From Kiritimatiellia bacterium (lineage in GTDB: Bacteria; Verrucomicrobiota; Kiritimatiellia; UBA8416; JAWODU01), in the NCBI GenBank assembly GCA_046483125.1, contig JAWODU010000119.1:1584-65583 (forward strand): a DNA stretch of 64,000 bases, in the 5' to 3' direction. Positions 55,748-63,725 of this stretch are shown here, in pieces (within the stretch, counting starts at the first letter, position 1; every line of letters begins with the position of its first letter). The position numbers were made by a program, and so were the translations under genes. Under the pieces are notes generated by a model, which searched no databases, had not been told where the DNA came from, and saw only the letters and a list, made by a program, of their open reading frames with translations.

Positions 55748-55877
55748 CCTCATCCCTCATCCGTCATCTGTGGTTGCTCCCCTCTCCTCCCATCTTAATC
55801 CCCATCTTTATCTTAATCCTTATCTCCCCGTCTGAACTCCGTCGTCCGTCATCCGTCGTCCGCCCTCCGTCGTCCGA
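55748..55877. repeat. Composite intergenic repeat: B-like (CCTCATCCGTCATCTG), then A (CATCTTAATCCCCATCTTTATCTTAATCC), then B (CCGTCGTCCGTCATCCGTCGTCCG..)
   Basis: Seen directly, in the gspK/gspL spacer. Confidence 0.85.
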
Positions 55878-55881
55878 CAGA

Positions 55882-56919
55882 CTACCGTTCCCGCCAGTCC
55901 AGAACCGTATCATTTTCCCGGTCGAACACAAAGGCTATCCGGTAACCGGCCTGTATTTCCCCTGAACCCTTGCCTCCTGCCCGCTCTACCCACCCTGTGC
56001 TTGTGCCGCGAAAACACGAAGAACGGATCTCTGCGTCGGCCATCATGGCCGCCAAAACACCTCTCTCCTCCGGTTCAAGCGGCTCAAATCCGTGCAGAGC
56101 CGCCATAACCGACGGGATACTCGGTTCGGTAAACTGCCCCCCGGCTTCCCGGAAATCAACTATACGCTCAACTACTGCAAGCGCAACGTCCGTTTCCCCG
56201 CGGCAATGCGAAACCGCCAGACATTCGAGCGCCTCCCTGCCGGCAGTGTTGATATTGATCTTCCCCCTACCGTACAGCGTAACGTGCGGTCCGATCCTTG
56301 CCGCAACTTCTTCGTTTATGCCCTTAATCAACAGCAATTCTTCGATACAGCCGATCGCGCCGTCACGACACTCGTAAGGCGGTCTCAGGTTCTGATAATA
56401 TTCGTTTTCCGCCCCGCCGGTCAAGACGTCTTGATTCCTGTCGCGCCAGTCCATCACGGCAGACGCCGTTTCCCCGGCCGTCAAAGGGTCGAGATCGCCG
56501 ACGCGTACCAGAAGAGCTTCCAGCAGGGGCCGGCCCGCGCTATTCAGGTTAATGCGGCTCTCCTCGTCGGAAAGACCGAAGCTTTCCTCACCGCCGGATA
56601 CCACCGAAAAGCCGCCCGCCCCGATACTCACTGACCAAAGCCCGTCCTCGATGTCCGAATTCCAGGCTTCTCCCGGTCCGTCCCATGCGTTGGTGTCCGT
56701 CATCAGGATAAAAAACGCTTGTTCCGCCCCGGCCGCGGCCAGGCATCGCGCCTTCGCGGAGTACCTGTTCCTTTCAGCCAGCGCCAGGTTCGCCGAAACA
56801 TACGCCCCAACGGCCACTGCCAGGGCCGCCAGAAAAAAAAGCACCCAGACAGCCAGGATCACGACGCTCGAAGACCGCCTTCCTGCGTCCCGGAATCCTG
56901 TCACACCGGCATTCTTCAT
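55882..56919 (-). CDS. gspK: Type II secretion system protein K
   Basis: N-terminal TM plus GspK-type periplasmic domain. 345 aa. Confidence 0.65.
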   Translation of the reverse strand: MKNAGVTGFRDAGRRSSSVVILAVWVLFFLAALAVAVGAYVSANLALAERNRYSAKARCLAAAGAEQAFFILMTDTNAWDGPGEAWNSDIEDGLWSVSIGAGGFSVVSGGEESFGLSDEESRINLNSAGRPLLEALLVRVGDLDPLTAGETASAVMDWRDRNQDVLTGGAENEYYQNLRPPYECRDGAIGCIEELLLIKGINEEVAARIGPHVTLYGRGKININTAGREALECLAVSHCRGETDVALAVVERIVDFREAGGQFTEPSIPSVMAALHGFEPLEPEERGVLAAMMADAEIRSSCFRGTSTGWVERAGGKGSGEIQAGYRIAFVFDRENDTVLDWRER

Positions 56920-57551
56920 CGTTTCTGAGAATCCACTGCCCCCCGGGCCCGCAGAACAACAGTTCTGCTGAAAGTCTTTCTCCCCCCTTCGCCCGAAAAC
57001 GATACCTCTATTCTCACCGCCGACGGCGGATTGGTCGGATTATGCCACTCCTCATGCCATACAGCGCCATCCGGACCCTCGACAAGCCCGTCGCTTTTGT
57101 CTTCCCGGGGCGCTTCCAGATAAAGAAACTTCACGCTTTCAGCCCCGTCAAAAAGGTTTTCTTCCCCCCTGCCCGGCGGCGGCTCGGCGCCCGGGAAGGG
57201 CCATGTTTTACGCATCAGGGCGCCGCGCCTGAAATCAAAACTGTATCTGACCGTTCCCATTCGCCCGACGCCCTCCGCCTCGCTTCCGTCCAGCCGGACA
57301 GGGAGCGAAAATTCGCTCCGTTCACCTTTGAAAGCAACGCCGTAAAAGTCGGGAACACCGGCCAGGTCTTTTGCCGTTATGCCCAGCCCCGGAATCACCT
57401 TTGACTCAACGGCGTGATGTTCGACGGCTTTTTCCCAGACCTTTATGCCTCCCGATACCGACGCTCCAATTACGCCGATCACCACCCCCAATATCAGGAC
57501 CGCGACAAGAAGTTCGATAAGGGTAAAACCTTTGCGGCTTACGGACGTCAT
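56916..57551 (-). CDS. Type II secretion minor pseudopilin (GspJ/GspH-like)
   Basis: Canonical prepilin leader MTSVSRKG|FTLIELLVAVLILGVVIG. ATGA overlaps both neighbours. Confidence 0.7.
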   Translation of the reverse strand: MTSVSRKGFTLIELLVAVLILGVVIGVIGASVSGGIKVWEKAVEHHAVESKVIPGLGITAKDLAGVPDFYGVAFKGERSEFSLPVRLDGSEAEGVGRMGTVRYSFDFRRGALMRKTWPFPGAEPPPGRGEENLFDGAESVKFLYLEAPREDKSDGLVEGPDGAVWHEEWHNPTNPPSAVRIEVSFSGEGGRKTFSRTVVLRARGAVDSQKR

Positions 57552-58252
57552 TTTTTCTCTTTTGTTCCCAAGTAAGTGCACAACGCAACACTGCGGTCGG
57601 AGCCTTCCTTCCACACCGTTACCTTAACCAGGTTCAGCTTCCTTTCGGTTATGCCTTCCTTTTCGTCGATTCCGCGTTCCACGCTTCCGATCTCCTCTGT
57701 TTCCACCTGCCAGTAGAAAAGAGGCTCTTTCTTTTCGAATATACCTCCGGAGGCCGTGACACCCAACTCTCCGTACTTTGCCGCCGACAGTTCTAACTCG
57801 GACATTTTTTCGCGTGCCAGCTCAGTGCACTTCACGGTTTCGGCCGAAGCCCCCATGGCCGACAGGCATGTGTTCATGGCCTGAAGAACAGCGGTGATCC
57901 CGACGGAAAGTATTACCACCGCAACCAGAACTTCTATGAGAGTGAAGGAAGAGTGCGATGTGCGGTGTGCGGTGTGCGATGTGCGATGTGGGTTGTGCGT
58001 TGTGCGATGTGGGTTGTGCGATGTGGGTTGCGGGTTTTGCGATGCGGCTTGCGGGTTCCGGGTTGCGGGATGGGAGATTCGCCGATCAGGGGATCGGCTC
58101 CTACAGTGGGAGGTGCATCGGGTGCTCGCCCCGGCGTAGTACCGCGCAAGCGGGACGAAGCCGGGCCGGGTGTCGGCCGCATCCCGAACCTGCCCCGGCG
58201 CAGTTCCGCGCAAGCGGGACGAAGCCGGGTTACTCCTCATCCGGGCGCACAT
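57548..58252 (-). CDS. GspI-like pseudopilin with anomalous ~100 aa N-terminal extension; the 5' extent is uncertain
   Basis: The mature part FTLIEVLVAVVILSVGITAVLQAM.. is GspI-like. No ATG/GTG/TTG lies in-frame between the repeat tract and FTLIE. The -1 residue is Ser, not Gly. The extension is composed of repeat elements. Confidence 0.5.
   Translation of the reverse strand: MCARMRSNPASSRLRGTAPGQVRDAADTRPGFVPLARYYAGASTRCTSHCRSRSPDRRISHPATRNPQAASQNPQPTSHNPHRTTHNPHRTSHTAHRTSHSSFTLIEVLVAVVILSVGITAVLQAMNTCLSAMGASAETVKCTELAREKMSELELSAAKYGELGVTASGGIFEKKEPLFYWQVETEEIGSVERGIDEKEGITERKLNLVKVTVWKEGSDRSVALCTYLGTKEKK
57952..58070. repeat. 17-unit imperfect heptanucleotide tandem repeat (GTGCGAT / GTGCGGT / GTGGGTT ...)
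   Basis: Seen directly. On the minus strand it encodes 7-aa repeats NPHRT(S/T)H. The adjacent Family C palindrome (58080..58105) and a 2x direct repeat CCGCGCAAGCGGGACGAAGCCGGG (58141..58164, 58205..58228) complete the extension. Coordinates +/-1. Confidence 0.85.
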
Positions 58253-62123: not shown

Positions 62124-62127
62124 CCCC

Positions 62128-63516
62128 CTACTCCAGCTTCCCGATCATATAGAAATCATCTTCGGGGCGGTCGTCGCCTTTTCCGTCCATGATCATTTCA
62201 CATCCGTCCAGCGTCTCTTCGGTTTTCACGTATTCGCCCTTTTTGCCCACGTACGATTCGGCCACAAACATGGGTTGCGTCATAAAATACTGCAGTTTCC
62301 GCGCCCTTTCATAGAGGGTCCGGTCCGCTTTCGACAGTTCATCCAGGCCGATAACCGCGACGATGCGTTTTAATTCGTCGTATTTCGTAAGGATCCTCAA
62401 TAGTTCCTGTGAAACATCGAAATGCCTCTGGCCTACTATAGAAGCGTCAAGATTCGAACATGAAGACGCCAGAGGATCGATTGCGGGATACAGGCCGAGC
62501 TGGGTTCTTTCACGTGACAGCACCATTACAGCGTCGAGATAACTGAAAATCGCGACCACAGCCGGGTCAGTCAGATCGTCGGCCGGCACATACACGGCCT
62601 CAAACGCCGAAATCGAGCCCTTGATCCTTTCGTGAACGTCACCCACTTCGGAACTCAACGTGGGCTGATAACCCGTTTCCGAAGGCGTTCTTCCCAGCAG
62701 TGTGGAAATCTCCGCGCCCGCCTGCACGAACCGGAATATGTTATCCATAAAAAGCAGTACTTCGCGGCCCTTGCTCTGCAGATATTCGGCAAGGGTAATA
62801 CCCGTGAGTATCACGTTAAACCTCGCCCCGGGCGGTTCGTCCATCTGACCGAAGGCCATCATTATCTTCTCCAGAATCCCCGCCTGCTCGAATTCGTAGT
62901 ACAGCTCGTTGCCTTCTCGGATACGCTCGCCTATACCCGTAAAAACACACGCGCCTTCGTGTTCTTCAACAATGTTGTGGATCAGTTCCATTATGAGCAC
63001 TGTTTTCCCGCAGCCGGCTCCGCCGATGACACCGGTCTTGCTTCCGCGAACGACGGGAAAGAGAAGATCCACGATCTTGATGCCGGTCTCCACAACTTCG
63101 GCTTTTCCGGCGTCCTCTCCGACATCCATGGCCACCCGTGAGACGTCCTTGTGTATGGGAGATCTCTGTTCCGTCTCTACAGGCCCTTTCCCGTCCACGG
63201 GTTCGCCCATAACGTTGACTATACGCCCGAACAACTCATCGCCCACCGGAATTGTAAGCATGTGGCCGGTCGAGGTCGTTACCGCGTTGCGCTGGAGGTT
63301 CAGCGTTGAGGAAAGGGACACGCATCTGGCGATATTGCCTTCCAGGTGTTCCGCGACCAGCAGGGTCACGTCGCGCTTGTCGAATGTTCTCACCATTACG
63401 GTTTCATGCAGATCGGGCATATCGGCCACATCATGGAACAGCACGTCCACTACCGGCCCCTGCACGGCCAGAACCTTGCCTTTTTTCAGTGTCTTTTCTT
63501 CTGTTTCAACTGCCAT
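62128..63516 (-). CDS. F1-ATPase beta-subunit paralog (solitary; no atpC/atpG neighbours)
   Basis: Full-length AtpD match with beta-barrel N-terminus and C-terminal helical domain. Walker A reads GGAGCGKT (Cys in place of Val). The DELSEED loop reads DELSKAD. Start at MAVETEEK. Confidence 0.8.
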
Positions 63517-63553
63517 ATCATTCTCCCGTTTGTAGCGGTTGCAGGTTACAGGG

Positions 63554-63725
63554 AATCTTAATCCCAATCTTAATCTTAATCTCTCACTCTTAATCGACTA
63601 AGGACTAGATGTATGGACCAGGTGCGAGGACCAGGTGCCCCTCTCCCCCGTCTTAATCTCAATCTTAATCCCAATCTTAATCTCTCCCTCTCCCTCCGTC
63701 ATCCGTCCTCCGTCCCCCCGTCATC
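63554..63725. repeat. Composite A-G-A-B repeat element upstream of the atpD-like gene
   Basis: AATCTTAATCCCAATCTTAATCTTAATC..., then GACTAAGGACTAG..GGACCAGGTGCGAGGACCAGGTGCCCCTCTCCCC, then GTCTTAATCTCAATCTTAATCCCAATCTTAATC, then TCCCTCCGTCATCCGTCCTCCG. Confidence 0.85.

Follow-up and report, generated by a model that had tools for sequence, protein, structure and literature searches.

What are the short tandem repeats that fill the gene spacers of a type II secretion system (T2SS) cluster in a Kiritimatiellia bacterium, and do they serve the genes beside them? We examined a stretch of 64,000 nt of contig JAWODU010000119.1 (assembly GCA_046483125.1), called the window below, in which such repeats accompany T2SS and ATP synthase (atp) genes. 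A first-pass annotation of this DNA had described three modules (a motif G, an AT-rich module A and a GC-rich module B) recurring in fixed order and in a single orientation, and had proposed that they were iterated binding sites for a regulator or structured mRNA leaders shared by these genes, with a mobile repeat as the alternative. On balance, we regard the window modules as most probably derived, with loss of the gene, from small selfish insertion elements that resemble the intervening sequences (IVSs) of 23S rRNA and carry an S23p gene. We also lean, with similar reserve, towards regarding the arrays as tolerated, lineage-specific insertions and not as dedicated T2SS regulatory sites.

Repeat detection with Tandem Repeats Finder returned arrays at every position that had been listed before. 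The true repeat units had 6 nt, with ATCTTA in alternation with ATCCCA or ATCGTA, or 7 nt (TCCGTCA and AAGGACC, as well as GGACCAG, GTGCGAT and GGGTTGC), the periods of 12, 14 and 21 nt being super-periods of these units. Modules A and B were indeed enriched, but not with the periods of 9–14 bp ascribed to them: with at most one mismatch, module A (ATCTTAATC) had 36 matches in the window against 10.7 expected, a number reached by no shuffle, and module B (CCGTCATCCG) had 30 matches against 7.2 expected. Motif G alone (10 matches window-wide against 6.9 expected) showed clustering only, and no enrichment. A total of 17 out of the 22 short-period arrays lay in non-coding DNA, which makes up 7.6% of the window, and 13 of those 17 fell within 55.7–63.7 kb, where all six spacers longer than 50 nt hold short tandem arrays, in agreement with the earlier statement that nearly every spacer of this region is occupied. 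This region carries, on the minus strand, genes for a PilM/N-like protein, GspK, GspJ, a GspI-like pseudopilin, GspG, GspF and GspE, and upstream of this gsp cluster the gene for the F1 ATP-synthase beta subunit (atpD, ATG at 63516) and then the end of a gamma-like gene. The arrays of the window tend to lie toward the upstream stop codon rather than the downstream start, and their distances to the starts were 151–287 nt for gspG and 38–209 nt for atpD, instead of the 80–150 nt given before. Units of 6–7 nt with no spacers between them, together with the lack of cas domains among the flanking genes scanned, confirm that these do not form a CRISPR array, as had been concluded.

The order of the modules reflects copying. 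Three mosaic G-A-B blocks of about 110–135 nt were mutually homologous: those at 58797–58934 and 63596–63725 aligned end to end, including their non-repeat linkers (z ~30 against shuffles), along a path leading from G (GGACYARGTGC..GGACCAGG) through a C-rich linker, the A array and a CTCCC linker to the B array, and the partial block at 55770–55877 aligned to both of them (z ~21). The differences between the 58.8-kb and 63.6-kb blocks were chiefly insertions and deletions of whole units. The 24-mer core of module A (AATCTTAATCCCAATCTTAATCTC) was present in three exact copies and three copies with at most two mismatches, all on the plus strand, against zero expected. The shared linkers, order and near-identical 24-mers indicate that a single composite was copied to give the G-A-B blocks, and not that these arose by independent slippage. 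The fixed order claimed in the first-pass annotation is therefore genuine for the G-A-B copies (two full copies at 58797 and 63596 and one partial copy at 55770) but not universal, with B before G at 61949/62077 and an extra A array ahead of G at 63554. Outside the window, neither the block junctions nor exact copies of the B and G units were found. A search of the three blocks at the DNA level found no terminal inverted repeats, and no shared flanking duplication was visible around them. We also considered G as a degenerate inverted partner of B, as in a hairpin of the type of miniature inverted-repeat transposable elements (MITEs), and rejected it, because there was no inverted repeat at the DNA level and the pairing varied between copies.

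Clustering of the neighbouring proteins at 118 array-selected loci revealed no transposase family, the largest family being present at nine loci, and the only small family later linked to the arrays was PF05635. In locus L176 (13309–13813), the gspF stop codon is followed by (AAAGTRTC)x11, a small open reading frame (ORF) and (ACTTTGAC)x8, and the ORF encodes a member of PF05635/TIGR02436, "23S rRNA-intervening sequence protein" (E 1.3e-36). Proteins of this family form a four-helix bundle distantly related to Avd of diversity-generating retroelements (DGRs), and the genes encode about 120–140 aa. A profile search of 1.6 Mb of collected DNA identified six strong PF05635 members (in L022, L025, L069, L080, L176 and L182), all of them tightly flanked by arrays, which were inverted where checked and in three cases consisted of A-type hexamers. 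To avoid selection by the arrays, an independent set was chosen by protein similarity to one array-flanked gene. This search returned 738 matches, all PF05635, most of them on very short contigs (0.5–3 kb), which fits a multicopy element whose arrays break short-read assemblies. The DNA was examined for six of the eight long-contig matches chosen, and six further PF05635 genes were all bracketed by inverted arrays. In total, 12 out of 12 PF05635 genes examined were bracketed by inverted short-unit arrays, the gene was co-oriented with both neighbouring genes in all seven loci with gene calls, and the pairing of one arm with the other as RNA exceeded shuffled controls in 11 of the 13 loci tested (z -2.3 to -8.7).

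Some of these elements lie in spacers equivalent to those of the window. In L635 (GCA_974487525.1, CDDJHW010000045.1), PF05635 genes at 165–569 and 1501–1914 occupy the atpA-atpG and atpG-atpD spacers. The element of the atpG-atpD spacer (P0005) has a 5' arm of CCTCTTAATCTTCCTCATCCTCTTAATCCTAATCTTAATCC then ACCCCCACCCC and a 3' arm of GATTAAGAGG...GATTAGGAGGATGGGG, or, in short form, CCTCTTAATC...CTAATCTTAATCC with ACCCCCACCCC for one arm and GATTAAG...GGATGGGG for the other. These arms correspond to module A with a C-rich run, and the window carries an A-G-A-B block in its own atpG-atpD spacer. The neighbouring element in the atpA-atpG spacer has heptamer arms (TTTCGAT.. and TCGAAAA x4), P0013 and P0059 have A-type arms, and P0046 and P0070 have CTCTTG/CAAGAG arms. 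Unit numbers vary around the same gene, an identical P0013 protein being flanked by six units in L637 and L638 and by about ten in L639. In L168, which is 92% identical to L176, only (AAGTTAT)x3 was found (13426–13461), and the next gene, a response regulator, lacks its 5' part. We rejected L176 and L168 as a clean filled and empty pair, as the residual array of L168 marks a deletion junction, and for the same reason a target duplication cannot be read at this site. In the literature searched, we found no description of PF05635 genes bracketed by tandem-repeat arms outside rRNA. In a figure legend, a large CRISPR-discovery screen includes "23S rRNA IVP" and "GspH" in a list of proteins associated with CRISPR-like repeats, which we take as a lead only.

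From these observations we infer the descent of the window blocks from intact elements, as we do RNase III processing and any mechanism of mobility. Intact elements, as found in other genomes, consist of two inverted arrays (for module A, the ATCTTA/ATCCTA hexamer with its C-rich run) around a PF05635 gene; where genes were called, they lie in a spacer between same-strand genes, and their arms can pair into a long RNA stem. By analogy with the IVSs of rRNA, RNase III would cut this stem and the element would be excised from the host transcript. In the window, the S23p gene and mostly also the partner arm would have been lost, and the blocks would have been copied among neighbouring spacers, as their shared non-repeat junctions suggest. 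Unit numbers would then drift by slipped-strand mispairing, a change of count that is seen in related loci and presumed for the window. The arrays would be carried passively in the atp and gsp transcripts as mostly unstructured, often purine-rich RNA that lengthens the spacers.

Several points weigh against this descent from S23p elements. The sample of PF05635 genes is small: six came from loci selected by arrays or by GspE, and the other six are members of a single protein subfamily or neighbours of such a member. No PF05635 gene or decayed remnant was detected in the window, even at permissive thresholds, and the analysis covers the 64-kb window, the remainder of this genome lying outside it. 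Among the arms of S23p elements, heptamers and octamers analogous to B and G were found, but none with exactly these units. The G-A-B blocks lack an inverted partner in the DNA and so are not plain remnants of a hairpin. The comparison of L176 with L168 showed neither a clean filled-versus-empty site nor a target duplication. Moreover, processing by RNase III outside rRNA is proposed by analogy.

The individual arrays and associated elements of the window are the following:
4754..4786, plus strand: heptamer array TTCAGTG x4.7, located 25 nt upstream of frr (ribosome recycling factor).
21666..21757, no strand assigned: inverted A-array pair forming a gene-less hairpin in the spacer between a VWA-domain gene and thrS, with 28-nt arms (89% complementary) and a 16-nt loop; fold z -4.1.
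28702..28773, plus strand: B-type array (TCCGTCATCTGCCA x5.1, in which 7-mers form a 14-nt super-unit) that lies upstream of a lyase gene and sits at the 3' end of an unnamed gene.
31225..31244, plus strand: array of the heptamer GAACCCT (x2.9), to which a copy near 1075–1110 is related; CTGAACC-type units occur in the relatives L154, L158 and L185.
55748..55877, plus strand: mosaic block of the gspK-to-pilM/N spacer, adjoining the gspK stop codon at 55882, with (CCTCATC)x3, a C-rich linker, A hexamers at 55789–55826 and B TCCGTCG x5.6 at 55838–55876; it aligns to the 58.8-kb and 63.6-kb blocks (z ~21).
57953..58069, plus strand: heptamer arrays GTGCGAT x10.4 and GGGTTGC x6.4, within the open frame leading into the GspI-like pseudopilin.
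58070..58229, plus strand: GTAG-hairpin unit of the repetitive extragenic palindromic (REP) type, with its palindrome at 58081–58098, and two copies of a GC-rich hairpin repeat of about 60 nt, a non-tandem component of the spacer mosaic shared with the neighbouring arrays.
58797..58934, plus strand: complete G-A-B block of the gspF-to-gspG spacer, ending 17 nt from the gspF stop codon and composed of G (GGACTAAG..GGACCAGG), a C-rich linker, A hexamers at 58834–58891 and B TCCGTCA x5.7 at 58895–58934.
60171..60258, plus strand: A hexamer array ATCTTA/ATCGTA/ATCCCA of about nine units, which fills the gspE-to-gspF spacer and has a short inverted partner at 60245–60258.
61949..61966, plus strand: a short array of B type (CCGTCATCCGTCGCCCGTC); the gspE start lies about 50 nt downstream of it.
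61968..62044, no strand assigned: inverted pair of GTAG-hairpin units, similar to REP and to bacterial interspersed mosaic elements (BIMEs), with 32-nt arms (81% complementary); RNA fold z -4.1.
62077..62123, plus strand: G-type heptamer array AAGGACC x4.4, located 4 nt from the atpD stop codon.
63554..63725, plus strand: A array at 63554–63595, then the complete G-A-B block at 63596–63725, both together filling the spacer that separates atpD from the atpG-like gene, with the B array beginning at the stop codon of the upstream gene.

The arrays of GTGCGAT and GGGTTGC (57953–58069) and the GTAG hairpins (58081–58104 and 61968–62044) had been overlooked in the earlier list of repeat elements. 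Imperfect palindromes with a GTAG head, which fall into two sequence types (GTAGGAGCCGATC..GATCGGC and GTAGGAGGCGAAC..GTTCGCC), occur at 48891–48914, 53597–53626, 58081–58104 and 61968–62044. A 69-nt-period repeat of 2.7 copies at 52634–52819 is coding, lies inside a MORN-repeat protein gene (52207–53580) and is unrelated to the spacer arrays. The only Rfam matches of the window at the gathering score were a 6S RNA (15070–15250, minus strand, 54.8 bits) and a tRNA gene (43424–43496, minus strand).

The open frame through the arrays at 57953–58069 leads into an unusual gene start. Between the heptamer arrays and the SS/FTLIE cleavage motif, the GspI-like ORF (57548–58252, minus strand) contains no start codon (ATG, GTG or TTG), and its only in-frame starts (58252, 58240 and 58216) overlap the gspG stop codon. 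Its "leader" thus has 99 codons, encoded by hairpin units and by the GGGTTGC and GTGCGAT arrays, compared with leaders of about 8–40 residues in relatives. The GspI-like gene may be damaged, or it may be translated through the arrays; a second reading frame is also open through 57953–58069, so that the open frame is weak evidence. In L150, gspG and a gspI-like gene each carry an in-frame pair of 8-nt arrays in the prepilin leader (6135–6204 and 6609–6691); these leaders have 34–40 aa, end in ...SPVHPHTKHG/FTLIE and have their sole start codons upstream of the arrays. As the unit length is not a multiple of three, the gain or loss of one unit shifts the frame.

Within the window, each module type has a single orientation, as had been stated, except for two hairpin partners on the opposite strand (21728–21757 and 60245–60258). 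However, the window represents a single replichore (GC skew negative throughout) and the neighbouring genes are all co-directional, so transcription, replication and local copying cannot be separated as causes of this orientation. In other genomes, A-type arrays between co-directional genes showed no orientation bias (37 sense and 32 antisense) and also occurred in convergent and divergent spacers. Folded per spacer as gene-sense RNA, the direct arrays were no better than shuffles (z -0.2 to -1.3, with one block at -2.2), and only the inverted A pair (21684–21757) and the GTAG-hairpin pair (61968–62044) folded significantly (each z -4.1). No Rfam family was found in the spacers of the window, either at the gathering threshold or at E<=1, and a scan for sigma-70 promoters and intrinsic terminators gave no excess and no sites within the arrays. 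With weak folds, no Rfam match and no conservation in relatives, the arrays do not have the properties of a structured RNA leader or riboswitch, and this part of the earlier proposal was not sustained (direct arrays z -0.2 to -2.2).

We compared the spacers of the window with those of its relatives, which were 80 metagenomic loci encoding GspE homologues with 49–67% identity to the GspE of the window. The atpD-gspE synteny was conserved among these GspE-selected loci. The F1 beta gene (62128–63516) lies directly upstream of gspE (60263–61897), an arrangement kept in L119–L149 with spacers down to 4–22 nt, and this conserved adjacency together with the very short atpD-gspE spacers suggests that the atp and T2SS genes are co-transcribed in the lineage. 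In many relatives the atpD-gspE and gspE-gspF spacers were only 4–60 nt long and repeat-free, and in others they held unrelated units (AGACTGC, CGAATTC, TCCTAA or a 16-mer) or GTAG hairpins. The gspF-gspG spacer, which has 304 nt in the window, measured 2–119 nt in relatives with adjacent genes. In relatives, other units or repeat-free spacers of 2–60 nt thus often stand in place of the arrays, which argues against a control element. The T2SS regulator site or structured leader is unsupported because the orthologous spacers are repeat-free or different and because no fold, no Rfam match and no orientation bias accompany the arrays.

Further features of the relatives concern the region after gspF. 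An extra gene of about 800–1000 nt, with an H-E-x-x-H-like motif (LPHE[ILM][TA]HL), lies between gspF and gspG in L123, L125, L126, L134, L141, L144, L148–L150, L153–L155, L158 and L197 and is absent from the window, where a G-A-B block sits in the spacer in which those relatives carry it. Long hairpins with tandem-heptamer stems, e.g. (CAACGTC)n/(GTTGG..)n, follow directly after the gspF stop codon in L144 (~12860–13100), L150 (~5190–5360), L184 and L187, and the hairpin units of L187 (GGACCAG/GGACCAT) resemble module G of the window.

The rival explanation that survives best, although we consider it unlikely, is that the arrays are plain microsatellites formed in situ, i.e. short tandemly repeated repetitive (STRR) sequences or long simple sequence repeats (LSSRs) that slip in tolerant spacers without any mobile element, their likeness to S23p arms being convergent. 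The arrays match the description of such repeats, with head-to-tail units of 6 or 7 nt in 3–10 copies, motif counts 3–4 times the expectation and a mainly non-coding location. Heptamers accounted for 53 of the 91 arrays in the GspE-selected loci, with dozens of differing, unrelated units, and a GATTAN hexamer occurred in four independent loci of this set. The unit counts also differ between close relatives, as slippage would have it: L143 and L147 (86% identical) share an array position with different unit counts, and at this position L138, with 77% identity to L143, has a spacer of 4 nt. An excess of heptanucleotides in bacteria, and LSSRs with units of 5–11 nt, have been reported (Mrazek 2007, as summarised in PMC4679880). 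Viral contigs contain arrays of ATCTTA and also gene-less inverted pairs of B type, and three control hexamers of the same composition were found in them at no fewer than 118–120 loci compared with 67 for ATCTTA. Because control hexamers are at least as frequent in these AT-rich viral contigs, the viral matches were treated as background, and viruses as a vector of the arrays were rejected.

Microsatellites formed in situ do not, however, explain the three blocks with common non-repeat linkers and order, nor the six near-identical 24-mers. The AT-rich hexamer is equally unexpected in its setting. A scan for ATCTTAATCNNNATCTTAATC with one genome per species gave at least 118 loci, and the Planctomycetes-Verrucomicrobia-Chlamydiae (PVC) superphylum accounted for 51 of 80 among the matches listed, belonging to Verrucomicrobiota, Kiritimatiellia, Lentisphaerae, Planctomycetota and Chlamydiales, with many of the genomes at 55–71% GC. 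The arrays listed were ATC-N-T-A hexamers, often in inverted pairs and adjoining other hexamer or heptamer arrays. Finally, the presence of inverted arrays around every one of the 12 PF05635 genes finds no explanation in slippage, and we continue to prefer derivation from S23p-carrying insertion elements.

Still less probable, in our judgement, is tuning at the RNA level, in which array length would set the expression of the cistrons through processing by RNase III or other enzymes, through Rho loading or through frame-dependent translation. For this there is the established precedent of the hmw repeats (PMC12721329), and in the window the arrays span from the stop codon to just before the next start within a co-directional cluster. 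Behind gspG, which encodes the major pseudopilin, the CACATCG/CAACCC array (57953–58069, 49% C and 11% G on the gene-sense strand) is unstructured and resembles a Rho utilisation (rut) site, the GspI-like ORF has no start downstream of its arrays, and the arrays of L150 are in frame in two prepilin leaders. In relatives, arrays were also mildly over-represented within the first 4 kb behind gspE, but this excess was only about 1.7-fold after removal of one array-rich locus, and we rejected a T2SS-specific enrichment in relatives on that account. Neither the position nor the sequence of the arrays is conserved across relatives, the G-A-B copies share no consistent common RNA structure, and the second open frame weakens the argument from translation. 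Strand composition relative to transcription was also unbiased across loci (G-rich sense 114, C-rich sense 86, not significant). Avoidance of Rho by a G-rich sense strand was rejected on the same counts, and the G-rich strand differs among the module types of the window. Across loci, arrays lay nearer the upstream stop codon in 50 of 76 cases and nearer the downstream start in 26.

That the arrays are iterated DNA-binding sites of a regulator common to T2SS and atp genes, or that these genes share a conserved structured leader, appears very improbable. The concentration of 13 of the 17 intergenic arrays in the T2SS/atp stretch and their single orientation in the window would suit such sites, and tandem 7–8-nt sequences have been annotated as putative global regulator sites in Geobacter metallireducens (PMC2700814). 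The arrays are missing from the orthologous spacers of relatives, and in the window they also adjoin thrS, frr, the VWA-domain gene, the lyase gene and a polyprenyl synthase gene, so that sites shared by the T2SS genes could not be upheld. The direct arrays have no significant fold and no Rfam match, and their orientation cannot be told apart from the effects of a single replichore and a single gene direction, with no bias in other genomes. Besides, a spacing of 6–7 bp is too tight for ordinary binders of duplex DNA, which weighs against regulator sites.

Movement of MITE- or REP-type elements by a transposase, for instance a REP-associated tyrosine transposase (RAYT), appears very improbable as well. 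In its favour, REP-like GTAG hairpins share the spacers (there are five of the form GTAGGAGSCGA, including one inverted pair, a motif count of 5 against 2.3 expected being weak by itself), the modular layout recalls BIME and BOX elements, and the suggestion of an element with an internal grammar came closer than the other earlier proposals through its composite copies (z ~30). Against it, only the hairpin units are palindromes of the REP/BIME kind, the G-A-B blocks show no terminal inverted repeats or target duplications, no transposase family was linked to the 118 array-selected loci, and the IVS-like model fits better.

If the preferred reading is extended beyond this genome, short-unit tandem arrays may be arms or footprints of a widespread, so far unrecognised IVS-like class with S23p/TIGR02436 cargo in PVC bacteria, Bacteroidota and perhaps among the STRRs of cyanobacteria, a generalisation that we put forward tentatively and consider less likely to be right than wrong. 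Should it hold, such elements would enter operon spacers and even cleavable prepilin leaders, and would be removed from transcripts by cleavage of their stems. The 7–8-nt arrays in pseudopilin leaders (57953–58069 and L150) could then make the expression of T2SS pseudopilins frame-dependent and phase-variable. To our knowledge, intergenic heptamer and hexamer arrays such as STRR and TAACTGA have had no accepted origin or function for decades, and we know of no role for the large PF05635/TIGR02436 family outside DGR Avd. S23p genes within inverted arrays in ordinary operon spacers tie the puzzles of the arrays, of PF05635 and of IVS mobility together, and lead to the predictions that the arms pair, that RNase III cuts them and that arrays co-occur with PF05635 genes genome by genome. 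For annotation, the message is that the repeats of the window are not to be labelled as T2SS regulatory sites, CRISPR-like arrays or RNA leaders. A literature search with the repeat strings themselves found no relevant paper, and the following comparison is with systems of similar architecture.

The hmw genes of H. influenzae have an (ATCTTTC)n repeat in the 5' untranslated region, whose length tunes expression via a hairpin and RNase III (PMC12721329). Both systems have transcribed heptamer arrays, but hmw is a single dedicated locus with a proven phenotype, whereas the family described here is dispersed and the window blocks have no conserved hairpin. BOX (boxA-boxB(n)-boxC) and BIME elements are likewise modular, with an internally variable tandem part, and lie in co-transcribed spacers after genes; they have no sequence relation to the arrays, and their modules are units of 40–60 nt or palindromes, not arrays of 6–7 nt. 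In Geobacter metallireducens, the tandem 7–8-nt multicopy sites (TCTCCGTS and GGACCGG) often form opposite-strand pairs. Judged by their description and not by sequence comparison, their units resemble modules B and G and their inverted pairs lie at variable distance, as here; unlike here, they are read as regulator sites, and PF05635 is unmentioned in the portion of the source available (PMC2700814). The TAACTGA repeats of Beggiatoaceae, Cyanobacteria and Bacteroidetes are also intergenic heptamers with a patchy spread across phyla and no evident transfer mechanism, but they lie within a few nt of start codons, while the arrays studied here tend toward the upstream stop and have different units (PMC4679880).

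The cyanobacterial STRRs and LSSRs share with our arrays the intergenic units of 6–8 nt, the few to about ten copies, the many loci per genome and the predominance of heptamers. What distinguishes the present family is that several array types are concatenated in a repeated order, copied as blocks and linked to PF05635. We know of no report of a PF05635 link for STRR.

The closest likeness is to the IVSs of rRNA. The IVS in the 23S rRNA of Coxiella burnetii is a selfish element with terminal inverted repeats, a 28-bp stem cut by RNase III and an S23p ORF in its loop, and the copy number of its tandem GACAGAT heptamers differs from strain to strain; the notion of IVSs as mobile elements is old and unproven (PMC4990558). 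The differences lie in the site and in the degree of reduction. The elements described here occupy intercistronic spacers of mRNA and not helix 25 or 45 of 23S rRNA, the window having no rRNA and all its copies lying between protein-coding genes. Their arms are almost wholly tandem arrays of 6–8 nt, and the window copies have no ORF and mostly no partner arm: PF05635 is present in the 12 related elements elsewhere and not in the window, and an inverted-repeat stem is present at 21684–21757 (28 nt, 89%, z -4.1) and not in the G-A-B blocks. Like the rRNA IVSs of Coxiella and Leptospira (PMC4990558), however, the related loci have inverted repeats around a PF05635/S23p gene that is co-oriented with host transcription, their arms can form a long stem, and their tandem units vary in number.

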